Shown here one piece after another: positions 13,236 through 39,363 of a stretch of DNA of 64,000 nt. Below the pieces are notes generated by a model, which saw nothing but the letters and a program-made list of their open reading frames with translations, was not told the origin of the DNA and did no database searches. The position numbers and the translations under genes were made by a program. Origin of the DNA: an uncultured bacterium (lineage in GTDB: Bacteria > Patescibacteriota > Minisyncoccia > UBA6257 > 2-01-FULL-56-20); assembly GCA_963807165.1 (NCBI GenBank), contig CAWDZM010000001.1:119963-183962 (forward strand), in the 5' to 3' direction. The stretch's first letter is position 1; each line of letters starts with the position of its first letter.

Positions 13236-14000
13236 ATGGGCAAGTTGATAGTGGCGAACTGGAAGGAGCATCCAAAGACGGCGGCGCACGCGCTTACGCT
13301 TTTTAAGGCTGTGGCAAAGACGCCACGCGCGAGTGGCGGCGAAGTGGTGGTCTGCCCACCGTTCATCTACTTAGAAGAAGTGGCACGCGAGTTCAAGCGT
13401 ATGCCGGTCGCCGCTCGCGCGCGCCTCGCGCTTGGCGCACAGGATGTGTTTTGGGAAGACGCGGGCGCGTATACCGGCGAAGTTGGTCCCGCGATGCTGC
13501 GCTCGCTCGGTGCAAAGTACGTGATCATTGGTCACTCGGAGCGCCGCCGGTTCGAAAAGGAAACGGATGCGATGATCAATAAAAAGATCGCGCTCGCCGC
13601 CCACGACGGCCTGAAAATAATTTTGTGCGTTGGCGAACCGCTTTCGGTGCGCGAGAAGGGAGCAGAGATCGCAAAGAAGTTCGTGGCACAACAGCTAGCG
13701 AAGGATTTAAATAATATTTCATTAAAAAAACCTGGGGATTTTTACGTTGCATACGAACCGATATGGGCGATCGGCACGGGGAAGAACGACACGCCGGAGG
13801 ATGCGCGCGAGATGGCGATGTTCATTAAATCTCTATTAAAGAAAACCAAGCGTATTTCGCCAAAATTTCTTTACGGCGGTTCGGTGAATGGCAGGAACGC
13901 GCGCGATTATGTACAATTGGATGTAATAGATGGGGCGCTCGTGGGAGGCGCGAGTCTCAAGGCCGATGAGTTCAAAAAAATAATTAATACTATCAAATAA
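13236..14000 (+). CDS. tpiA: triosephosphate isomerase
   Basis: LIVANWKEHPKT, IIGHSERRR (GHSERR signature), AYEPIWAIGTGK. Confidence 0.9.
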   Translation: MGKLIVANWKEHPKTAAHALTLFKAVAKTPRASGGEVVVCPPFIYLEEVAREFKRMPVAARARLALGAQDVFWEDAGAYTGEVGPAMLRSLGAKYVIIGHSERRRFEKETDAMINKKIALAAHDGLKIILCVGEPLSVREKGAEIAKKFVAQQLAKDLNNISLKKPGDFYVAYEPIWAIGTGKNDTPEDAREMAMFIKSLLKKTKRISPKFLYGGSVNGRNARDYVQLDVIDGALVGGASLKADEFKKIINTIK

Positions 14001-20427: not shown

Positions 20428-21438
20428 TTGACAGTATCTAAAAAAGATGCTAGAATTCAGTCCATGGAGAACAATAGCAATAAAGCCAAGTGGAAAATTG
20501 CGACCCTCCCACGCGTTCAGGCAGATGCCTTGATCTCGTGTTTTTTACTTACTTATTTTGGAGAGGGACAGTATCCCGGGATTAAAGAAGCGGAGTATTG
20601 TTTTTGGGTGGACATTCCGGAAGGAAAAACTTCAGACGAACTTGAGAAGGAAGGATACATTCTTCTTGACATGGGAGGAGGAAAGTTCGACCATCACGTT
20701 GCCGAAGGAAATCATCGCGAAAAATGCATGTCGCAATTGGTGGCGGAACATCTTGGTATCCATAAACAGCAATCGGTCAGAAAACTTTTGGAGTATGCCC
20801 GTCGCGACGATCTTTTGGGAAAGGGGACCATCTCCAACGATCCTATCGATCGCGCATTTGGTCTTTCCGGCCTCATCAATAATTTGAATCGCACGATGCC
20901 CGATGATCAGTTGTCAGTATTGAAGACGATCATGCCGTTGTTCGTCGCGCATTATATAGAAGAGCGAAAACGCTCCGAAGATTTCCCTCGGGAATTTCAG
21001 GAGAAGATAAACAATGGGAAGATGCATATGATTGTCCTTGAGACGGCGCGTGGCGCAATAAAGATGGCGATCATCGAGACGGACGAGATCGGTATGGCGG
21101 GATATCTTCGCGCCCAGCAAGGCGTTGATCTTGTGGTGCAGAAAATGTCGTCCGGGCACGTGAATATCATTACTCAGCAGAAAAAAGAGCTCGAGCTCTC
21201 CCAGATCGCGAAGTTTCTGCGCATGGCGGAAGCGGAGGAGAAGGGGATCGCGGATACACTCCAGGAAGCTGATCTGATAAACCCCGGAAGGATTGCGGGA
21301 GTGGAGGAATGGTATTTCGACATCCGGGCACGAACGATCCAGAACGGCGGCATTCGTCCTCAGTGGACGATCCCGACAAAGCTTTCATTGGCAATGATCG
21401 GCGAGATTATAAGACAAGCAGCAGCTATCAAAATTTAA
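20428..21438 (+). CDS. MYG1/UPF0160-like protein (divergent; metal-ligand His partly replaced)
   Basis: VQADALISCFLL and ILLDMGGGKFDHHV resemble the MYG1 motifs FHCDEALACALL and VVDVGG...YDHHQ (from memory, not searched). Confidence 0.4.
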   Translation: MTVSKKDARIQSMENNSNKAKWKIATLPRVQADALISCFLLTYFGEGQYPGIKEAEYCFWVDIPEGKTSDELEKEGYILLDMGGGKFDHHVAEGNHREKCMSQLVAEHLGIHKQQSVRKLLEYARRDDLLGKGTISNDPIDRAFGLSGLINNLNRTMPDDQLSVLKTIMPLFVAHYIEERKRSEDFPREFQEKINNGKMHMIVLETARGAIKMAIIETDEIGMAGYLRAQQGVDLVVQKMSSGHVNIITQQKKELELSQIAKFLRMAEAEEKGIADTLQEADLINPGRIAGVEEWYFDIRARTIQNGGIRPQWTIPTKLSLAMIGEIIRQAAAIKI

Positions 21439-21614: not shown

Positions 21615-22688
21615 ATGCCAGTTTCCAAGCCCGTTAGAGTTATCGTGTTCCCCGCGAACCCCCCAATCGACAAGTATGTTGCCGCTCGCCGGGTTCTCAA
21701 TGACAACACGCAGTATCAGGTGGTCGTCGAGTTCTGCAATGTCAACCAGCCGACGTCCGAGCATCTGGCAAAGTGGAGCGCAAGGTGTTCACCCGGCGTT
21801 GAGCCGTATCTCGTTGATATCGGCGACAAGAAGTATCACGGGTTAGGGTCTTCTGCCGCAGAGGTGGAGCTCGCCGCATCAGAGACGCGGGAAAGCCGAA
21901 TACTCCGGCATCTCGTTGACCTCGTCAACGAAAACAACAGAACCGGCAACCTCAAGAACCGCCTGCATCCGATCGCCAAGATTATGCGGGACGCCTACCA
22001 TGTCATGAACGGCAACGACTCTTCTCAGACTGTGGTCTTTGACCACGGGATGGATGTGGTTAACGCATACTTCATGGATCATGGACGTCGCTCTTGGGAC
22101 ACGCTTTCCAACCCCGAGTATGCTGAACTCAAAACACTGTGGGATGGGTTCAACGTTTCGGAAAATGAAGTGCTTGATTTCACCCTTCCGCTTTACTTCA
22201 AGCAGCTCTTTACGAGCGGCCGAAGCGCGGAGGAGATCGTCGAAAAGATCTCCTGGTGGATCAAGAAAGCCAAGATGGCTGCCGATCGCCGTGCTGCGAT
22301 CAGGGGCACGAAGTATGAGATCCGCAAGTTCAAGATTCAAGGTTACGCTGCGGGGCTCGTTCACATCACGGATTACTTCGAGGCGGAGGAAGCTCCTTAC
22401 AAGCTGTTCGGCGACAAGACTCTCGAGCTTTCGCTGCTGATCATCCGGGACGCGCAGGGGCACGTGCACATCAAGAGCTCCTACCGTTATCCGGGGATCA
22501 ACCTGGATAAGCTGTTCGAGGTGTTGGACAAGCTGGAGCCGGGGCTTTGGTACTTCGAGAAGCGGTTCAAAGCGGGGCCGATGATCATGAACGGCTCTCG
22601 CCAGTTTACCGGAGTTGCCTCCACTGAATTGTCTGACGGAGACATCTGCCAGTTAGCGCACGAGTTTGTAACGTTTGATAAGAAGTAG
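21615..22688 (+). CDS. divergent paralog of the upstream MYG1/UPF0160-like protein; probably non-catalytic; atypical codon usage
   Basis: Collinear similarity to 20428..21438: YLVDIGDKKYHGL vs ILLDMGGGKFDHH, LELSLLIIRDAQGHVHIKSS vs GVDLVVQKMSSGHVNIITQ, and GLWYFEKRF...STELS vs EEWYFDIRA...PTKLS; the gene is richer in GC-ending codons than its neighbours. Confidence 0.4.
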   Translation: MPVSKPVRVIVFPANPPIDKYVAARRVLNDNTQYQVVVEFCNVNQPTSEHLAKWSARCSPGVEPYLVDIGDKKYHGLGSSAAEVELAASETRESRILRHLVDLVNENNRTGNLKNRLHPIAKIMRDAYHVMNGNDSSQTVVFDHGMDVVNAYFMDHGRRSWDTLSNPEYAELKTLWDGFNVSENEVLDFTLPLYFKQLFTSGRSAEEIVEKISWWIKKAKMAADRRAAIRGTKYEIRKFKIQGYAAGLVHITDYFEAEEAPYKLFGDKTLELSLLIIRDAQGHVHIKSSYRYPGINLDKLFEVLDKLEPGLWYFEKRFKAGPMIMNGSRQFTGVASTELSDGDICQLAHEFVTFDKK

Positions 22689-23947: not shown

Positions 23948-24622
23948 ATGAAAATCTTATTAATCGAGGACGAGCGGGAGATAGCGCATTTTATTATTAA
24001 TGGGCTCAAGGCGGAGCACTTCACGGTCGATTGGGCGGAGGGCGGTGCGAAAGGGCTTATGTGGGCAAAGGTCAATCCATATGATCTTGCGATTATCGAC
24101 ATCAATCTCGGCAACAACGAAAACGGTATCGATATTTGCGGAGAGATTCGCGCGAAGGGCAGAATGTTTCCGATCATTATGCTTTCGGTGGTGAATGACG
24201 CGCACACCAAGATCGAGGCGCTGAACATCGGCGCGGATGATTATCTTACTAAGCCATTTTTTGTGGCGGAGCTCCTTGCCCGCGTCCGCGCGCTTTTGCG
24301 CCGTGAGAAGAAGCTGATCGGGCCAAAGCTCATCATCGCTGACCTTGTGATGGACACGCTCGCGCACACCGTTAGGCGCGCGGGAGTGGAGATCAAGCTG
24401 AACCGCAAGGAGTTCACCTTGCTGGAATATTTTATGCGCAACGCCGGTACTACGCTTACGCGTGGCATGATCCTTGAACACGTGTGGGATATTAACGCCG
24501 ACCCGTTTACCAACACGGTGGACGTGCACGTGCGCTTCCTCCGCGCAAAGATAGACGAAGGGCACGAACAAAAACTTATCAAAACGGTGCATGGATATGG
24601 TTACAGAATCGAAGGTGTATAA
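23948..24622 (+). CDS. OmpR-family response regulator
   Basis: Receiver domain MKILLIEDEREIA...LAIIDINLG...; C-terminal winged helix ...TVHGYGYRIE. Confidence 0.85.
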   Translation: MKILLIEDEREIAHFIINGLKAEHFTVDWAEGGAKGLMWAKVNPYDLAIIDINLGNNENGIDICGEIRAKGRMFPIIMLSVVNDAHTKIEALNIGADDYLTKPFFVAELLARVRALLRREKKLIGPKLIIADLVMDTLAHTVRRAGVEIKLNRKEFTLLEYFMRNAGTTLTRGMILEHVWDINADPFTNTVDVHVRFLRAKIDEGHEQKLIKTVHGYGYRIEGV

Positions 24623-24632
24623 TAGAGAAACC

Positions 24633-27086
24633 ATGACTAACCAAAAATCATCTCTTCCAACCACATTTGTCGTGCTCGGCGTTACGGGCGATCTTATGAC
24701 CAAAAAGATCGCGCCTGCGCTTTTTAATCTGCACGAAAAAGGCCTGTTGCCGCCGCACTTTCGCCTGGTGGGCGTCTCGCGCCGCGACTGGACGGACGAT
24801 GACCTGAAGCGTCACATTCAGGCAATTTTGGAGGTGCGGGTAAAGAACGCCTCGCCAGCGTCCGTCGCATCGTTTTTGAAGACCGTTGTCTATCACAAGA
24901 TCACGTTCGATGCGTTTGCGGATTACGTGGCGCTCGGCGATGCGCTCAAGAAAATCGACGACGAACACGGCGCGTGCTCGAACAAGCTCTTCTATCTTTC
25001 TGTGCCGCCACAGTTCTACGACATGATCTTTACGAACATCCACAAGGCGCGGCTGACGGAGCTATGCGATGCATCGACGGGCGGTTGGACGCGCGTGGTG
25101 GTGGAGAAGCCATTTGGCAGTGATGAGAAGAGCGCGAAGGCGCTCGACGAACGCATTGCGCGGCTATTCAAAGAAGAGCAGGTGTATCGCATTGATCATT
25201 ATTTGGCGAAGGAGACGTTGCAGAATATTTTGACATTCCGGTTCCTTAACAATCTTTTTGAAGATAATTGGGGACGCGATCTGATCGAAAAGATTTATGT
25301 GCGCGAACTGGAGAACGTGGGCGCGGAGGATCGCGGGCCTTTTTATGAAAGCGTCGGCGCTCTGCGTGACGTCGGCCAGAATCATCTGCTCGAGATGATC
25401 GCGCTTATTGCGATGGATCAACCACACGACATGAGCGCCGACGCGATCCGTGCCGCGCGCGCGGCGGTGCTCGAAACGATCAAGCCGATTACGCCATCCG
25501 AAATGTCTAAAAAAACATTCCGCGCGCAGTACGATGGCTATCGCGCTATTAAAGGTGTGGATCCCAAGTCCGGCGTGGAAACGTATTTCAAGCTTGCACT
25601 CCAGCTGACACATCCGCGCTGGCAGGGCGTGCCAATATTTATAGAGGCAGGCAAGCGCATCATCGACCCCAAGCGCAACGAGGAGGTGACGGAGATCGAG
25701 GTGGTGTTCAAGCACGAGACTCCGTGTCTCTGTGCGCTCTACGGCGCCGGTGCGCCGGGCGCGAACGTGCCGATGCACTTCAAGAACTCCATCACATTCC
25801 GGCAGGATCCGCATGAGAGCATTACGATCCGCTTCTGGGCAAAGAAGCCGGGGATCGGCATGGAAATGGAAGAGCGCGTATTCAACGTGGATCTCCGCCA
25901 GGGTGAGCGCAAGTCGCAGTACACGGAAGAGTACGAAAAGCTCTTGCTCGATTGCATCAACGGCGACCAAACACTTTTCGTCTCGAGCCGCGAGGTCGCC
26001 GCAATGTGGCACTTCGTTGATCCCATTGTAAGGGGATGGGCGAAGGGTCTTGTGCCGCTCCGGCGCTACGCGCCGGATAGCGAAGCCGTTGTTGTTGAAG
26101 CGGCGACGTTGCTTGAGCCGCCGGAGAGCGCTACGGAAAAAGGCGCGGGCGCACGTGACAGAATCCGCAAAGAGATCGGTATCTTTGGTCTCGGCAAGAT
26201 GGGCGCAAACGTCGCACGGCAGTTGCACGAAAAGGGCTGGCGCGTCGTCGCATCCAACCGTTCGCCCGGGCCGGTGGAGATGATCCAAAAAGAGGGTATT
26301 CAGGGCGTGTTCACGCATTCGGAACTTGTGGCAGAGTTGAAATCGCCACGCATTATCTGGCTGATGATCACCGCCGGAAAGGGGAACGATGATCTGCTTT
26401 TTGGTAAAGATGGCATCGTGCAACATTTAAAGAAGGGCGATATCGTTATTGATGCCGCGAATGCATTTTACGAGGACTCCGTGCGCCGCGCAAAGCTGCT
26501 CAAAAAGCGCGGCATCCATTTTATGGACGTCGGATTTTCCGGTGGGCCGTCGGGCGCGCGCAACGGCGGATCACTCATGATCGGCGGCGAGCGCGAAATA
26601 TTCCAGCGCTTGGAGCCGCTCTTCCGCGACCTCTCCGTGCCGGGCGGCTATTCGTACTTCGGTTCCGCCGGCGCCGGCCACTTCGTAAAGATGGTGCACA
26701 ACGGCATCGAGTACGGCATGATGCAATCGCTCGCGGAAGGTTTTGCCATTATGAAAAAATCGCCGTTCAAGCTGGATCTCGAACAGGTGGCGAACGTTTA
26801 CAACCAAGGTAGCGTCATCGAGTCGCGCCTCGTGGGATGGTTGGAAGATGCGTATAAGCTCTACGGCCAGGATCTCAAGACCGTTTCCGGTTCCGTCGCG
26901 TACACCGGAGAAGGCGAGTGGACGGTCAAGACTGGCAAAAAATTAAAAGTGCCCGTGCCCGTTATTGAGGACTCGTTCAAGTTCCGCGTCCGCTCAAAGA
27001 AGTCGCCGAGCTATATCGGGAAGGTGTTGTCCGCGCTGCGAAATCGGTTTGGGGGGCATGCGATAGATCAGGGGAAGGGAAAATAG
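24633..27086 (+). CDS. zwf-gnd: fusion protein: glucose-6-phosphate 1-dehydrogenase (Zwf) N-terminal half plus short-form 6-phosphogluconate dehydrogenase (Gnd/YqeC-like) C-terminal half
   Basis: N-terminal VLGVTGDLMTKKIAPALFNL...RIDHYLAKE (G6PD motifs); C-terminal IGIFGLGKMGANVARQL...GSAGAGHFVKMVHNGIEYGMMQ (6PGDH NAD-binding and signature); one continuous 831-aa ORF; alternative start at 24591. Confidence 0.75.
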   Translation: MTNQKSSLPTTFVVLGVTGDLMTKKIAPALFNLHEKGLLPPHFRLVGVSRRDWTDDDLKRHIQAILEVRVKNASPASVASFLKTVVYHKITFDAFADYVALGDALKKIDDEHGACSNKLFYLSVPPQFYDMIFTNIHKARLTELCDASTGGWTRVVVEKPFGSDEKSAKALDERIARLFKEEQVYRIDHYLAKETLQNILTFRFLNNLFEDNWGRDLIEKIYVRELENVGAEDRGPFYESVGALRDVGQNHLLEMIALIAMDQPHDMSADAIRAARAAVLETIKPITPSEMSKKTFRAQYDGYRAIKGVDPKSGVETYFKLALQLTHPRWQGVPIFIEAGKRIIDPKRNEEVTEIEVVFKHETPCLCALYGAGAPGANVPMHFKNSITFRQDPHESITIRFWAKKPGIGMEMEERVFNVDLRQGERKSQYTEEYEKLLLDCINGDQTLFVSSREVAAMWHFVDPIVRGWAKGLVPLRRYAPDSEAVVVEAATLLEPPESATEKGAGARDRIRKEIGIFGLGKMGANVARQLHEKGWRVVASNRSPGPVEMIQKEGIQGVFTHSELVAELKSPRIIWLMITAGKGNDDLLFGKDGIVQHLKKGDIVIDAANAFYEDSVRRAKLLKKRGIHFMDVGFSGGPSGARNGGSLMIGGEREIFQRLEPLFRDLSVPGGYSYFGSAGAGHFVKMVHNGIEYGMMQSLAEGFAIMKKSPFKLDLEQVANVYNQGSVIESRLVGWLEDAYKLYGQDLKTVSGSVAYTGEGEWTVKTGKKLKVPVPVIEDSFKFRVRSKKSPSYIGKVLSALRNRFGGHAIDQGKGK

Positions 27087-27190
27087 AAGAAAGAAAAGAA
27101 ATCACAGATGGTGGAGGCTGAATATGATAGAGATACTGTTCCCATGGATAACCCTGAAACTTTATGTTATAGTAATACGTATAAAGAGAC

Positions 27191-27397
27191 ATGAAAAAAC
27201 TCCTGAAATTTATGGGGATCAATAGACATCCAGAAGGTGTGGCGCTGGATAGAGCAGAGAAAAAAGAGCTTTTTGCCCTCTCTTCGAAGCGTTTTACCGA
27301 TTTGGATCACGAAGGAAGGCGAAGGCTTTTAGAGATTAGTGCTAAAGATTTTTCCAGAAAATTTTCTGGAGTGATTAAAGATCTTTCTCGTGAGTAA
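27191..27397 (+). CDS. hypothetical small protein in an AT-rich islet
   Basis: ORF only. Confidence 0.2.
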   Translation: MKKLLKFMGINRHPEGVALDRAEKKELFALSSKRFTDLDHEGRRRLLEISAKDFSRKFSGVIKDLSRE

Positions 27398-27608
27398 GTG
27401 GATCTATCCAGATAGAGAAACATTAAAATGGTGGGGAGAATATCTTGAAGACCCCACTATTCTTTGCATGAATTGCCGCTTACGCCAGGAATGGGTCAAC
27501 ACGGTATCTAACACCTTATTGTTATTAAATTCGATCATTATAACGATGAAATTTATCATAATGGAGCTCATGTCCTATATAAAGTTTGCAAAAATCATCA
27601 TTTTATAA
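27390..27608 (+). CDS. hypothetical small protein in an AT-rich islet
   Basis: ORF only, overlaps the previous one by 8 nt. Confidence 0.2.
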   Translation: MSKWIYPDRETLKWWGEYLEDPTILCMNCRLRQEWVNTVSNTLLLLNSIIITMKFIIMELMSYIKFAKIIIL

Positions 27609-27880
27609 ACGGAAATAAGAGAGCTCCCTTATTGTTTTATGTCTTTTTTGCATCATTAATGGATATATGACACGTGATATACGGAAGAAATAAATAATCT
27701 TGCCAAACAAACTGCTGATATCAATGGAAGTCAAAATTATGAAGAGACATTAGGAATATCCAAAAAATATTAAAAGGGGTAATCGTCCCGATTTCAAAGG
27801 GTTAGGATGTTTAAATATTAAATCCCCCATTTTGACCAGTTTATGACCATGGACACCCAAAATCTCTGAAATAGCGTATA

Positions 27881-28870
27881 ATGGAGGGTATGATCCCGGA
27901 CGACATAAAAGCCTACGGTAAACAGTTCGATTTTGAGCCAAATATCGAAAACGCCGCCAAACTCAAGAAGTTTGGCAAATTTGTGGTTGTGGGCATGGGC
28001 GGATCTCATTTGGCGGCCGATATCATCAAGGCGTGGCATCCGGAGATCGACATTGTGGTGTGGTCCAATTACGGACTGCCGCCGCTTGCCGAGAAAGACC
28101 TCAAAGAGCGCCTCATCATCTTGAGCTCATATTCGGGAAGCACTGAAGAGGTGCTCGATGCGTTCGCCGTGGCGAAGACAAAGAAACTTTCGATGGTGGC
28201 GCTCGCGACGCACGGAAAATTGATCTCGCTTGCCGATAAGGCAAAGATTCCGTATGTGCGCATTCCGGACACGCACATCCAGCCGCGCATGGCGACGGGT
28301 TTGATGCTCAAAGCGTTGCTTGCGCTGATGGGCGAGAAGAACCTGCTCGCGGAAGCGAAGGCGCTTTCCACTCAGATACATCCGTCGCGGGAAGAGTTGC
28401 GTGGCAAAGATCTCGCGCGGCGCATTCACGGTGTGGTGCCGATTATCTATGCGTCCACGCGCAATCAGGCGCTGGCTTATAACTGGAAGATCAAGTTCAA
28501 CGAGACGAGCAAGATCCCGGCGTTCTATAATATCGTCCCCGAGCTGAACCATAACGAGATGACGAGCTTCGACGTGAAGACGAAAACCATGCCGCTTTCG
28601 CGCAATTTTCATTTTATATTTTTGAAGGATGCGGGCGACGATCGCCGCCTCATTAAGCGCATGAATGTGCTCGAAAAACTGTATCGTGATCGTGGATTCA
28701 AGACAGAGATCATTTTGCTCCAGGGAAAAACGGAACTAAATAAGATTTTTAACGCGCTCAACCTTGCGGATTGGACGGCGTACTATAGCGCAAAGATGTA
28801 TGGCGTGGAAGCGGAGCAGGTGCCGATGGTGGAAGAGTTTAAAAAGCTGATCGCGCGGAACACTCAATAG
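27881..28870 (+). CDS. pgi: bifunctional phosphoglucose/phosphomannose isomerase (SIS domain, archaeal-type PGI/PMI)
   Basis: FVVVGMGGSHLAADIIKAW...SYSGSTEEVLDAF (SIS motif), ~330 aa; TATAAT immediately upstream. Confidence 0.7.
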   Translation: MEGMIPDDIKAYGKQFDFEPNIENAAKLKKFGKFVVVGMGGSHLAADIIKAWHPEIDIVVWSNYGLPPLAEKDLKERLIILSSYSGSTEEVLDAFAVAKTKKLSMVALATHGKLISLADKAKIPYVRIPDTHIQPRMATGLMLKALLALMGEKNLLAEAKALSTQIHPSREELRGKDLARRIHGVVPIIYASTRNQALAYNWKIKFNETSKIPAFYNIVPELNHNEMTSFDVKTKTMPLSRNFHFIFLKDAGDDRRLIKRMNVLEKLYRDRGFKTEIILLQGKTELNKIFNALNLADWTAYYSAKMYGVEAEQVPMVEEFKKLIARNTQ

Positions 28871-36224: not shown

Positions 36225-37448
36225 TTGCCAAATACTTTTACGATGCCGATAAAAAAAGCCAGCACAAAAAAGCCAGGACTTCAAAAGGAAAAAACGATGC
36301 GCAAAAAAGTTGCGCCGGTATCTCGCGCGCAACGGCAGAAAAAATTGCTTCGTATCGTTCAGCGCGCAAAGCCGATCGTGATACAAAAACGGGTGCATCA
36401 ACTTGAACGGCATGAGAGCAATCCGATCATCGAACCGCGCCCGGCGAATTATTGGGAGATGAAGGCGACATTCAACCCCGGTGCGATCTATGCCGACCAC
36501 CGTGTCCACTTGCTCTATCGCGCGATCGGCGGCGATGATGTTTCGGTGTTGGGGTACGCCGCGAGTGATGACGGCGTTTCATTTGCCGAACGGCCGAATG
36601 AACCGGCGTATCGTCCATTCACTATAAAGAGTACGACGCCAAAGAAACAACAAAAAATGCTCAGCCCCGCATATTTTTCCGGCGGGGGATGGAACGGCGG
36701 ATGCGAAGACCCGCGCCTCACACTCATTGATGACACGGTCTACCTTACCTATACCGCGTTCGATGGCTGGGGTTCGATCCGCATCGCGCTTTCCTCGATC
36801 GGACTCGAAGATTTTTTGAATAAACAGTGGAAGTGGAAGAAGCCGGCGATGATATCGCCGCCCGGACAGATCCATAAAAACTGGGTGATCTTTCCGGAGA
36901 AGATCCATGGAAAGTTTGCGATCCTGCACGGGATTACGCCGGAGGTGCTCGTTGAGTATGTTGACTCGTTGGATTTTGATGACTCTGCTTTTATTAAAAG
37001 CTCACGGCCTTCCAATGATAGAGTGGAGCTTCGGAAGGGAGTGTGGGATAGTCGCGTGAGGGGAGTGGGCCCGTCGCCGATGAAGACCAGTGAAGGATGG
37101 CTGGTGCTCTATCACGCGATTGATGAGGAGCACGATCCGGGTCGCTATAAACTTGGCGCGATGATCCTTGCCCTCGATGATCCGACAAAAGTGCTCTATC
37201 GTTCGCGCATGCCGATCCTTGAACCGGATTTTGATTATGAGAACAGCGGGTTCAAGGCGGGCGTGGTCTATTCCTGTGGCGCGGTCATAAAAGACGGCGA
37301 GCTCTATGTCTATTACGGCGGTGCCGACTCGGTGACGTGCGTCGCGATGGCGAACCTGAAAAAATTTTTACATGAGCTCAAAATACACGGCGCGCCAAAG
37401 TTACAGCAAGAAAAAACAACGGCACCAAAGACCAATGGCTGGCGCTAA
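36225..37448 (+). CDS. glycoside hydrolase family 130 (DUF377; beta-mannoside phosphorylase/glycosidase-like) with Lys-rich N-terminus
   Basis: NPIIEPRP..WEMKATFNPGAIY...GGCEDPRLTLIDDTVYLTYTAFDG...LYHAID...YYGGAD; start could be 36297. Confidence 0.7.
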   Translation: MPNTFTMPIKKASTKKPGLQKEKTMRKKVAPVSRAQRQKKLLRIVQRAKPIVIQKRVHQLERHESNPIIEPRPANYWEMKATFNPGAIYADHRVHLLYRAIGGDDVSVLGYAASDDGVSFAERPNEPAYRPFTIKSTTPKKQQKMLSPAYFSGGGWNGGCEDPRLTLIDDTVYLTYTAFDGWGSIRIALSSIGLEDFLNKQWKWKKPAMISPPGQIHKNWVIFPEKIHGKFAILHGITPEVLVEYVDSLDFDDSAFIKSSRPSNDRVELRKGVWDSRVRGVGPSPMKTSEGWLVLYHAIDEEHDPGRYKLGAMILALDDPTKVLYRSRMPILEPDFDYENSGFKAGVVYSCGAVIKDGELYVYYGGADSVTCVAMANLKKFLHELKIHGAPKLQQEKTTAPKTNGWR

Positions 37449-39363
37449 ACGATCATCTGAAAATCCGATACTCATTCCGGATGCGTCTTTGGCGTGGGAA
37501 GCAGAAGCGGCGTTCAACCCGTCGGTAGTGGGCGGTCGCGACGGCAAAGTGCATATGCTTTTTCGCGCCGCCGGTATAAAACAAAATATTGCCGGCGCCG
37601 AAGTGGAAGTTTCAACCATCGGCCATGCGATAGGTAAAAACGCGATAGATTTTGGTAGTGAGCGGGAGCAGCTTGTTGTACCAGTCGAATCATGGGAACG
37701 GTACGGATGTGAGGATCCGCGGGTGACAGAGTTCGAGGGAAGGTATTATATTTTTTATACCGCGGTTTCAGATTTCTCTGCGGACGGCATCAAGGTGGCG
37801 GTTGCCATCACAAAAGATCTTAAAACGATAGACGAGCGGCATCTCGTGACACCGTTCAACGCAAAAGCTATGGCGCTTTTCCCTGAGCGCATCGGTGGCA
37901 AGATCGCCGCGCTCGTCACGGTAAACACCGACCGGCCGCCGGCAAAGATCGCTGTGGCATTTTTTGATCGCGTGGAAGATATATGGTCCAAGGAATATTG
38001 GGATGTGTGGTACAAAGATTTTGAGCACCATGTGATCGATATTGAGCAGAATGAGAAAGATCAGATCGAGGTAGGATCCGCGCCGCTCAAGACCAAGGAT
38101 GGTTGGCTCATCTTCTATTCCTATATCTATAACTATTTTGCTCCGCCGCCGATATTCGGCATCCAGGCGGCGCTGCTTGATTTGAATGATCCACAGAAGA
38201 TCGTTGGTGAAGTAAAGCGACCGTTTATTGTGCCGCAAGAGGAGTACGAATTCTATGGTCGCGTACCGCACGTTGTTTTCCCGTCAGGCGCGCTCATCCG
38301 CGCCGCGGATGTGTATCTCTATTATGGCGCGACGGATACGACCTCGTGCGTGGCGACGTTCAAAAAAAAGGAACTTCTGGAACAATTGGTGTTCACGGCA
38401 AAGCGGCAGCTACGTCGTTTTGAAAAAAATCCCATCATTACGCCGATGCCGGAACATGCGTGGGAGTCAAAGGCGACGTTCAACCCTGCCGCGATCTATG
38501 AAGGCGGTATTGTTCATATTCTGTATCGCGCAATGTCGGAGGATAATACGTCGGTGATCGGCTATGCATCGTCGCCGGACGGTGTGGACATCACTGAACG
38601 ATTGCCCGACCCTATCTACACGCCGCGCGCAGACTTTGAGCAGAAGAAAAATCCTGGCGGCAACTCTGGTTGTGAAGATCCGCGCATCACGAAGATCGGC
38701 GAGCGCATCTATATGTGCTATACCGCGTACGACGGCGTTGACGCGCCCCGCGTCGCATTCACTTCTATTGACGCAAATGATTTTGTGGCGCATCAATGGA
38801 AGTGGACACCGCCGCTATTGATCTCGCCGCCCGGCATGGATGACAAGGATGCTGCAGTGTTTCCAAAGAAGATCGGCGGGAAATATATCTTCCTCCATCG
38901 GCTCGGTTCGGAGATCTGGATCGATCGCGTGGATGACCTCGAATTTAACAATGGAAAATTTTTGGGTGGTGAAGTGTTGATGCATCCGCGCGATACCGCA
39001 TGGGATTCCAAACGCATCGGCATCTCCGCACCGCCGATCGAAACAAAGTACGGATGGCTCCTTTTATATCATGGCATCTCCAAGCGCAGCGGGTATTATA
39101 CTGTTCGCGCCGCGTTGCTCGATCTTAAAGACCCCTCAAAGATCTTATATCGCACGCACGATCCACTACTCGAACCCACGCTCACATATGAACGCCAGGG
39201 GATTGTTTCGAACGTTGTATTCCCGTGCGGTGCCGTCGTTCTGCGGCATCAGCTATATATCTATTATGGTGGCGCGGATAAAGTGGTGGGCGTGGCATCC
39301 ATCGATATCGATTTTCTTATCGAGGGACTCGTGAAGGAAGCAAAGATGGGAGGGAGTGGATAA
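37435..39363 (+). CDS. tandem double GH130-domain protein
   Basis: Two collinear GH130 modules: NPILIPDASLAWEAEAAFNP...GCEDPRVTEF...YYGATD and NPIITPMPEHAWESKATFNP...GCEDPRITKIG...YYGGAD; 14-nt overlap with the upstream GH130 gene. Confidence 0.7.
   Translation: MAGAKRSSENPILIPDASLAWEAEAAFNPSVVGGRDGKVHMLFRAAGIKQNIAGAEVEVSTIGHAIGKNAIDFGSEREQLVVPVESWERYGCEDPRVTEFEGRYYIFYTAVSDFSADGIKVAVAITKDLKTIDERHLVTPFNAKAMALFPERIGGKIAALVTVNTDRPPAKIAVAFFDRVEDIWSKEYWDVWYKDFEHHVIDIEQNEKDQIEVGSAPLKTKDGWLIFYSYIYNYFAPPPIFGIQAALLDLNDPQKIVGEVKRPFIVPQEEYEFYGRVPHVVFPSGALIRAADVYLYYGATDTTSCVATFKKKELLEQLVFTAKRQLRRFEKNPIITPMPEHAWESKATFNPAAIYEGGIVHILYRAMSEDNTSVIGYASSPDGVDITERLPDPIYTPRADFEQKKNPGGNSGCEDPRITKIGERIYMCYTAYDGVDAPRVAFTSIDANDFVAHQWKWTPPLLISPPGMDDKDAAVFPKKIGGKYIFLHRLGSEIWIDRVDDLEFNNGKFLGGEVLMHPRDTAWDSKRIGISAPPIETKYGWLLLYHGISKRSGYYTVRAALLDLKDPSKILYRTHDPLLEPTLTYERQGIVSNVVFPCGAVVLRHQLYIYYGGADKVVGVASIDIDFLIEGLVKEAKMGGSG

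Follow-up and report, generated by a model that had tools for sequence, protein, structure and literature searches.

A predicted single-polypeptide fusion of glucose-6-phosphate dehydrogenase and short-chain 6-phosphogluconate dehydrogenase in Patescibacteria and some Coriobacteriia

Glucose-6-phosphate dehydrogenase (G6PD, Zwf) is joined to another oxidative pentose phosphate pathway (PPP) enzyme in the fusions with 6-phosphogluconolactonase (6PGL) of Plasmodium (GluPho), Giardia and Trichomonas and in metazoan H6PD. Such G6PD::6PGL fusions arose independently several times (PMC3148214), and channelling or co-regulation has been proposed as their benefit. A fusion of G6PD with 6-phosphogluconate dehydrogenase (6PGDH, Gnd) is found in the searchable literature for the diatom Phaeodactylum tricornutum alone (protein 54663 / XP_002183714.1; Kroth et al. 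2008, PMC2173943; Stover et al. 2011, PMC3148214), and its annotation is disputed. The subject of the present analysis is a zwf-gnd fusion gene at 24633..27086 on the + strand of a 64,000-nucleotide stretch of contig CAWDZM010000001.1, from an uncultured bacterium of the Patescibacteriota; this whole stretch is referred to below as the window. Judged from its sequence and that of its relatives, the gene very probably encodes a bifunctional enzyme, G6PD plus short-chain 6PGDH, that would serve the oxidative PPP at its steps 1 and 3; the fusion itself is real and conserved.

The window protein shares with the diatom fusion its two enzymes, their order as the papers name it (G6PDH, then 6PGDH), the skipping of 6PGL, a short spacer (8-25 aa or 39 nt in the diatom) and an activity that is likewise uncharacterised. 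The diatom fusion differs in being eukaryotic; it was reported from one species and its nearest relatives only, nr held no further case in 2011, and a later JGI annotation split the diatom gene. The bacterial fusion is prokaryotic, occurs in at least two phyla and carries a short-chain, tetramer-type 6PGDH; the diatom side of this comparison is taken from the two papers. Short-chain 6PGDHs are said to be prokaryotic only (PMC8900737), so the 6PGDH part of the diatom protein is probably of the long-chain type. The G6PD::6PGL fusions differ in that the partner there is a lactonase (PF01182), which performs the consecutive step, whereas the partner here is the step-3 dehydrogenase, with no direct product exchange between the two. 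The fusion polypeptide has no match to PF01182 at E <= 0.01, and therefore falls outside the G6PD::6PGL family by that family's defining test. No natural prokaryotic Zwf-Gnd fusion was found in full-text literature searches, where matches to 'zwf-gnd' are engineered co-expression constructs, and 6PGDH specialist papers of 2022 and 2026 make no mention of fusions. What is apparently new here is a prokaryotic and widespread fusion whose 6PGDH is of the short-chain type and bears an NADP-type signature; fusions of pathway enzymes, and a eukaryotic precedent, were already known.

The same architecture recurs in many genomes. In a search of protein clusters at 90% identity, the best 120 matches from 5.8 billion clusters (54-92% identity to the window protein) share its four-domain architecture and are 780-845 aa long, save for a few truncated entries. 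Their sources are assemblies from JGI, ENA, NCBI and Logan, and Paceibacterota, Minisyncoccia and Patescibacteria are the source names stated for them. When 1.84 billion representatives at the 50% identity level were scanned exhaustively with HMMER, about 14 fused representative clusters were obtained (730-808 aa, 38-52% identical to the window protein), and under these came unfused Zwf (~470 aa) and short Gnd (~300 aa); a fused protein of ~1000 aa was not found among the best 150 representatives at this level. GTDB was scanned with one genome per species and an alignment spanning the junction, and the best 80 of 292 confirmed relatives were taken. One stop-free open reading frame (ORF) runs over both halves in 76 of these 80 species loci, the four exceptions being two loci cut by contig ends, one frameshifted locus (L029) and one truly split pair (L081). 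Exact protein look-up added four loci with the fusion as a single ORF, a duplicate of a GTDB locus among them.

Among the carriers, as named in the titles of their records, are Paceibacterota, Parcubacteria, Minisyncoccia, Wolfe-, Nealson-, Nomura- and Uhrbacteria, and further Woese-, Levyi- and Roizmanbacteria. Spechtbacterales are also among the listed carriers, with a locus that is cut by a contig end after the Zwf half. Sixteen carriers are Coriobacteriia, Anaerosomatales or other Actinomycetota by their titles, and a complete Coriobacteriia chromosome of 2.67 Mb encodes a 798-aa protein with all four Pfam domains. Carrier genomes that are complete or nearly so include OY970126.1, OY970175.1, OY970216.1, CAVOJZ010000002.1 (914 kb) and the Coriobacteriia chromosome OY968780.1, and an unfused zwf is found in sister genomes, e.g. 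that of the Minisyncoccota encoding MHB0865486.1. A few bins are labelled Woesearchaeota, Bathyarchaeia, Saccharibacteria or Gammaproteobacteria, labels that are not trusted without checking. The public fused sequences are labelled 'glucose-6-phosphate dehydrogenase', and one 'decarboxylating 6-phosphogluconate dehydrogenase'. The first-pass annotation of this DNA had described a Zwf-Gnd fusion as rarely reported; this stands for the literature, in which the Phaeodactylum case alone was found, but not for the sequence databases, in which the fusion is common in Patescibacteria and present in some Coriobacteriia.

Its central claim, that of a single-polypeptide Zwf-Gnd fusion, is borne out by these species loci and clusters, by the invariance of the catalytic residues in both halves (below) and by a shared history of the halves. 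The pairwise distances of the two halves are correlated among 80 fused proteins (r = 0.74, with 0 of 999 Mantel permutations as high), which indicates that the modules evolved together. It is scarcely credible that the fused frame stems from an artefact of assembly or sequencing, for example a stop that was missed, a chimeric join or a corrected frameshift. Errors or real splits do happen in this region, given that the long-read assembly of L029 is frameshifted in its GC-rich linker, but an artefact was rejected because 76 of 80 independent genomes at species level, and the best 120 clusters from JGI, ENA, NCBI and Logan, show the same in-frame architecture. Base composition is moreover smooth over the junction in the window. 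In L029 itself (OY970354.1, a chromosome from a long-read metagenome-assembled genome, 6150-6420) an in-frame ATG (MALRREIG) precedes the Gnd part, and the frameshift could reflect either a sequencing error in a homopolymer or a split that is real and recent.

In the window, a + strand ORF extends without interruption from 24591 to 27086 and, read from its first ATG, encodes 831 aa. With the ATG at 24633 as start, the product is 817 aa (817 codons plus a TAG stop), again with no stop and no frameshift, and includes four Pfam domains and matches to three NCBIfam models above cut-off. The upstream ORF, an OmpR-type response regulator, ends with a TAA at 24620-24622, and homologues are 780-845 aa long, with coverage of 97-98% of the 831-aa ORF when this was taken as query. 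Because of this upstream end and these lengths, the true start is most likely ATG 24633 and the product one of 817 aa. The uninterrupted ORF of 831 aa that had been described is thus a single ORF indeed, while its length fits the start at 24591 and not the 24633 given with it, from which 817 aa result. A scan for promoters and terminators around the fusion gene gave matches at chance level only. Residue numbers below refer to the 817-aa product unless the 831-aa frame is named.

The first half of the protein (residues 1-498; 24633..26126, + strand) is a G6PD (Zwf) module by TIGR00871, by Pfam and by a Foldseek match to 1e77. NCBIfam zwf TIGR00871 scores 432.7 bits against an equivalog cut-off of 400.6, and both Pfam domains of the Zwf family (PF00479 and PF02781) are present, G6PD_N with E = 7.9e-56 (27-212) and G6PD_C with E = 8.6e-72 (214-498; both in 831-aa frame numbering). 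In sequence searches of the PDB the first half matches G6PDs and the second half short-chain 6PGDHs. Residue conservation was judged on alignments of 86 Zwf modules and 89 Gnd modules, all from fused proteins. The dinucleotide-binding fingerprint GVTGDLMTKK, of the GxxGDLxxKK type (residues 16-25; 24678..24707, + strand), has G16, G19 and D20 invariant or almost so, and the lysine of EKPFG is present and also invariant or near-invariant. Arg50 (codon 24780-24782, + strand) is kept in 85 of the 86 sequences and aligns with human R72 and Leuconostoc mesenteroides R46, which contact the 2'-phosphate of NADP. In the conserved substrate-binding motif RIDHYLAKE (residues 186-194; 25188..25214, + strand), D188, H189 and K193 are invariant. 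The catalytic base His251, within RDVGQNHLL (25383..25385, + strand), is invariant too and aligns with L. mesenteroides H240 and human H263.

The AlphaFold2 model of this half has block-mean predicted local distance difference test (pLDDT) values mostly of 85-96, with a few loops lower, and has the predicted fold of G6PD, a Rossmann domain followed by a beta+alpha domain. Foldseek against the PDB matched it to L. mesenteroides G6PD 1e77 with a target-normalised template modelling (TM) score of 0.88. Compared with canonical Zwf (L. mesenteroides G6PD, 1dpg/1e77), the module is thus alike in fold, in all catalytic residues and in passing TIGR00871, and differs in having RIDHYLAKE in place of RIDHYLGKE, in an additional HxxxCxC...H loop and in a C-terminus that runs into a second enzyme. 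At position 192 the 86 fused sequences have Ala (72), Gly (8) or another residue (6), and the Gly-to-Ala change is a clade trait. The H-x3-C-x-C...H loop (H361, C365, C367, H382; residues 361-382; 25713..25781, + strand) lies in the G6PD beta+alpha domain and is clade-specific, being present in 68 of the 86 fused proteins, 15 of 16 Coriobacteriia among them, and in the closest unfused Zwf relatives. It was not found in the compared Zwf of Vibrio, Bacteroides and Brucella. The loop has low pLDDT in the model and could be a metal site or a redox switch.

The second half (residues 510-817; 26160..27083, + strand) is a short-chain 6PGDH (Gnd) module by TIGR00872, by NF007161 and by its PDB relatives. 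The gnd_rel model TIGR00872 scores 335.6 bits against a cut-off of 297.2 and NF007161 (PRK09599) 342 against 271, while the long-chain gnd models fall far under theirs (216 vs 413 and 205 vs 427). Pfam NAD_binding_2 (E = 2.2e-41, 528-682) and 6PGD (E = 6.9e-19, 696-804; 831-aa frame numbering) are matched, the latter at profile positions 1-115 of 290 only, which indicates a single helical hemi-domain. The module is thus of short-chain size, ~300 aa, with one all-helical hemi-domain that is not duplicated as in long-chain enzymes. The Rossmann fingerprint GIFGLGKMG (residues 516-524; 26178..26204, + strand) has G519, G521 and G524 invariant. In the catalytic motif AGHFVKMVHNGIEYG (residues 680-694; 26670..26714, + strand), the general base K686, H689, N690 and the general acid E693 are invariant in the 89 Gnd modules, as is S636, the Ser of GxSGG. 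The residues known for short-chain 6PGDHs, i.e. the Lys, Glu, His and Asn of HFVKMVHNGIEYG, the GxSGG Ser and the RX2FGXH motif as defined in PMC12871650, are therefore all present. The last of these is a C-terminal substrate-binding tail, R-N-R-F-G-G-H (residues 803-809; 27039..27059, + strand), which stands near the free C-terminus and in which R803, F806 and H809 are invariant. The motifs that had been quoted for the two halves in the earlier annotation (GVTGDLMTKK, RIDHYLAKE, GIFGLGKMG and GSAGAGHFVKMVHNGIEYG) were all recovered. A degenerate or merely regulatory role for one of the halves was ruled out, the catalytic residues being invariant in both.

The closest solved relatives of this half, with E = 1e-54 to 1e-57, are the free short-chain 6PGDHs (332-358 aa) Mycobacterium tuberculosis Gnd2 (8ihe), Gluconobacter oxydans Gox1705 (6vpb), the Geobacter enzyme 4e21 and the Gluconacetobacter enzyme 6xeq. 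The fused module resembles them in its ~300 aa, its single helical hemi-domain, its K/H/N/E set and its RX2FGXH tail. It differs in carrying a 500-aa G6PD at its N-terminus where these enzymes stand alone, in having N-R-S where they have an NAD-type Asp at the end of beta2, and in missing an insertion of ~10-18 residues that precedes the GY.h.G segment in the solved enzymes. Because the fold is common to short-chain 6PGDHs and other beta-hydroxyacid dehydrogenases, and because weak NCBIfam matches to tartronate semialdehyde reductase and 3-hydroxyisobutyrate dehydrogenase (HIBADH) occur, the C-terminal module might be considered an enzyme of one of those types. This is very improbable: the weak matches reach 75-84 bits against cut-offs of 290-397, whereas the 6PGDH models reach 336-342 and lie above cut-off; the 6PGDH-specific K/H/N/E set and RX2FGXH tail are invariant (PMC12871650); and the best solved relatives are all 6PGDHs.

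The cofactor-specificity triad of the Gnd module, N542-R543-S544 (26256..26264, + strand), is of NADP type by sequence, and N-R-[S/T] occupies it in ~80 of the 89 fused sequences. NRS/NRT is the NADP signature of long-chain 6PGDH (sheep N32-R33-T34). In the solved NAD-preferring short-chain enzymes an Asp stands at the end of beta2 (DHD in 8ihe, DRD in 6vpb, DLN in 4e21, DRT in 6xeq). The NAD+ preference that is carried in the name of TIGR00872, and that the solved enzymes show, is therefore not reflected in the triad of the window protein, which is in line with the name of the NF007161 subfamily, 'NADP-dependent'. On account of this triad in the Gnd half and of R50 in the Zwf half, NADP+ is predicted as the cofactor of both steps.

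From these features the activities, cofactor use, oligomer and any kinetic advantage of the protein are inferred as follows. The N-terminal module would convert glucose-6-phosphate to 6-phosphoglucono-delta-lactone, and the C-terminal module would convert 6-phosphogluconate to ribulose-5-phosphate by oxidative decarboxylation, for a predicted output per glucose-6-phosphate of 2 NADPH, CO2 and ribulose-5-phosphate. Hydrolysis of the lactone formed in between would be either spontaneous or due to a lactonase whose gene lies elsewhere. In free short-chain 6PGDHs the RX2FGXH tail is donated to the neighbouring subunit's active site in the tetramer (PMC12871650, PMC8900737). The order Zwf-then-Gnd would leave the Gnd C-terminal tail free, as tail exchange between subunits requires, and a tetramer would fit both the free C-terminus and the conservation of the tail. 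This order, with a free tail reaching the neighbouring subunit, implies that the 6PGDH modules may assemble as a tetramer like the free short-chain enzymes and that the G6PD modules may dimerise around them. The fusion would tether a dimer-forming module to a tetramer-forming one, which poses a question of assembly. The proposed benefit would be that the two steps that produce NADPH are obligatorily co-expressed at 1:1 and co-localised; a kinetic gain over and above co-expression is put forward with much lower confidence than the existence of a real bifunctional enzyme.

The whole protein was modelled as a monomer with AlphaFold2 from a 108-sequence alignment. The model has a mean pLDDT of 87.9, with both modules confident, and its sole internal segment with pLDDT < 50 is PESATEKGAGA (residues 499-509; 26127..26159, + strand), so that the modules would be linked by a flexible tether of roughly 11 residues. 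The predicted TM score (pTM) of 0.63 fits what is expected for two rigid modules that lack a fixed interface. In the homologues neither the length nor the sequence of the tether is conserved, and the stretch between the conserved blocks amounts to 20-35 aa, the normal C-terminal helix of G6PD included. The linker of ~40 aa that had been proposed for the junction is thus too long, whether the disordered part (499-509) or the variable stretch (20-35 aa) is considered. In a Foldseek search against the PDB no solved chain covered both modules, and a match was obtained to the G6PD half only. Around the junction the sequence reads ...IRKEIGIFGLGKMG. There is no start codon or Met at the junction, where the window reads ...RKEIGIFGLGKMG and free Gnd starts MKKEIG; the first Met lies inside the Rossmann motif (GLGKMG).

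No gene for 6PGL was found next to the fusion, in agreement with what had been noted before, either by Pfam scans of ~57 window ORFs, which gave no match to PF01182 or PF10282, or by phmmer on window ORFs >= 80 aa. With two annotated Pgl proteins as probes, phmmer returned 0 matches to DevB-type 6PGL among ORFs >= 80 aa of the window and of 84 fused-gene loci; the probes matched each other at 3.5e-45 as a positive control. The unannotated ORFs beside the PPP genes also hold nothing lactonase-like. In ordinary bacteria pgl commonly lies directly beside zwf. It may be speculated that the fusion makes a dedicated 6PGL dispensable, that its carriers lack 6PGL genome-wide and that one gene product runs the whole oxidative branch, which is held to be unlikely. 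In that case a tethered assembly, with G6PD dimers around a tetrameric 6PGDH core, would retain the delta-lactone long enough for hydrolysis, or one of the modules would itself speed hydrolysis, perhaps via the HxxxCxC...H loop. In E. coli spontaneous intracellular hydrolysis is no substitute for Pgl (bioRxiv 10.1101/2023.11.29.569206), and a 6PGL gene is reported for at least one patescibacterium (bioRxiv 10.1101/2024.03.08.584096). Were 6PGL dispensable in this way, the fusion would constitute a minimal oxidative PPP with two active sites and a natural counter-example to the view that Pgl is indispensable for efficient flux.

Information about the origin of the fusion comes from L081 (4660-7119, in a bin labelled Gammaproteobacteria), in which zwf and gnd are an unfused, tight pair with only TGA-TAA-ATT-ATG between them (...KDAKVS-TGA-TAA-ATT-ATG-KKEIGIVGLGKMG). 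The free Gnd of L081 starts with MKKEIG, at the same place as xKKEIG in the fused proteins, so stop-codon loss, or fission in reverse, would interconvert the two states, and L081 apparently shows the state that either preceded a fusion or followed a fission. The most likely origin of the fusion is a closely spaced zwf-gnd pair in which the stop codon was lost; since then the fused gene has, most likely, been passed on as one piece in many Patescibacteria and in a single Coriobacteriia clade. Crude neighbour-joining trees, computed without support values, were made for both halves. The Coriobacteriia fusions form one clade in the trees of both halves, and their nearest partners are Patescibacteria fusions at 60-63% identity, a pattern that is compatible with transfer of the fused gene. 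A single origin of the fusion was considered and not retained, as no clean fused clade appears in these trees. The smallest clade that holds all fused proteins also contains 36 sequences classed as unfused, some of which may be contig-truncated fragments; four locus ORFs among them are contig-truncated, frameshifted or split.

Several points weigh against the bifunctional, two-NADPH reading of the fusion or restrict it. No confident interface between the modules is present in the model, and channelling is thus without structural support. Direct channelling between the active sites is moreover impossible without lactone hydrolysis, since the 6PGL step is skipped, and proximity could at most limit loss of the labile lactone. 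The lactonase search covered the 64-kb window and flanks of 6-10 kb, with the DevB type sought by phmmer, and a 6PGL elsewhere in the genome is possible. About 8 fused proteins, L044, L047, L050, L053 and L071 included, have an NAD-type Asp in the Gnd half while the NADP-type S-R-R is retained in the Zwf half; cofactor use may therefore vary within the fusion family, and in this minority a single polypeptide might yield one NADPH and one NADH. In the trees, unfused Zwf and Gnd relatives, e.g. a 480-aa Minisyncoccota Zwf, are scattered among the fused ones, from which it follows that the fusion is non-obligatory and may be selectively near-neutral, and that more than one event of fusion or fission is likely. 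Lastly, the diatom fusion enzymes were suggested to undergo post-translational cleavage (PMC2173943).

The last point, together with a tether that is disordered and exposed in the model, would allow a precursor that is cleaved in the tether; alternatively Gnd might also be translated separately, and in either case two enzymes would be present in the cell. Both are quite unlikely. The tether, variable in length and sequence, has no conserved cleavage motif, and no protease gene is conserved nearby. Separate translation is opposed by the lack of a start codon or Met before the Rossmann motif, the first downstream Met being that within GLGKMG.

A weightier alternative, to which somewhat less than an even chance is given, is that the fusion is real but selectively near-neutral. 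The stop would have been lost in a compact operon, fission would be hard, the effect would be one of co-expression only, and a separate 6PGL would be encoded elsewhere. For G6PD fusions this possibility was also raised by Stover et al. (PMC3148214). L081, with only two stop codons and one ATG between the fused and unfused states, agrees with it, as do the interspersed unfused relatives, the unconserved and disordered tether without predicted interface, and the report of 6PGL in at least one patescibacterium. Neutrality accords less well with the maintenance of the fusion over deep divergence (to 38% identity) and in two phyla, with the consistent orientation and co-evolution of its halves, and with the lack of 6PGL near any of the 84 loci, given how common zwf-pgl adjacency is in other bacteria. 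The bifunctional enzyme with obligatory co-expression of both dehydrogenases remains the preferred interpretation.

Additional information can be gathered from the genes around the fusion. A phosphoglucose isomerase (PGI) gene of the SIS / bact-PGI_C type (Pfam PF10432, 2.9e-37) lies at 27881..28870 on the + strand, and tpiA was located by Pfam scan at 13236-14000, so both genes that had been reported to be nearby are present. A homologous PGI occurs in the flanks of 28 fused loci; it directly follows the fusion in L001 and L003 and stands one gene farther downstream in L002, and in L003 rpiB, rpe and a split transketolase stand within 10 kb. With an adjacent PGI, fructose-6-phosphate could be led back to glucose-6-phosphate in a cyclic oxidative PPP with maximal NADPH yield. 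The window has the look of a Patescibacteria genome, and its gene order is conserved in a 914-kb contig with 66% protein identity, the shared order being tpiA, SIMPL, GtrA, MurB, SecA and, farther on, tRNA-binding protein, FKBP, response regulator, fusion and PGI.

The spacer between the fusion stop and PGI (27100-27880) has a GC content of 0.35, compared with ~0.55 around it, and holds a 68-aa ORF at 27191-27397. A stop-interrupted frame in it reads ...HNGAHVLYKVCKNHHFINGNKRAPLLF..., the Fic/Doc core motif HxFxxGNKR, and the spacer looks like a decayed toxin-antitoxin insertion of Phd/Doc type. The fusion and PGI are only ~50-70 bp apart in the relatives L001 and L003. Between secA and the tRNA-binding protein gene, two ORFs at 20428-21438 (336 aa) and 21615-22688 (357 aa) have no Pfam match at E <= 1; in L001 a sigma factor and a DUF5667 protein are found in their place. 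At 36225-39363 the window has two consecutive genes of GH130, the beta-1,4-mannooligosaccharide phosphorylase family, the second with two GH130 stretches, and the family is also present at the syntenic position in L001. These genes may supply sugar phosphates to the route through PGI and Zwf-Gnd.

Two further proteins with related domain combinations were seen. P0224 (735 aa; NCBI/Logan, on a 102-kb contig) has an N-terminal PGI (PF00342) and a C-terminal short-chain 6PGDH (NAD_binding_2 + 6PGD), with an NAD-type Asp in its Gnd half. P0140 (868 aa; JGI, on a 4.2-kb contig) has G6PD over residues 1-447 followed by ~420 residues without a Pfam match at E <= 1e-5, and may represent another fusion partner or a mis-called gene.

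The occurrence of the fusion in bacteria lends credibility to the disputed diatom fusion, as a solution that evolved more than once. As a fusion that skips an intermediate step, it is a test case for whether channelling or stoichiometric co-expression is the selected benefit, and as a compact one-gene module with a predicted yield of 2 NADPH it could serve in cofactor regeneration. Annotation of the protein as G6PD alone hides the 6PGDH half, and the oxidative PPP of carriers may be wrongly scored as incomplete. The fusion also raises the question of how the lactone is handled in the carbon and redox metabolism of a large uncultured radiation. If active as predicted, it would be the main source of NADPH and pentose for many Patescibacteria, a group with a minimal and poorly understood central metabolism.

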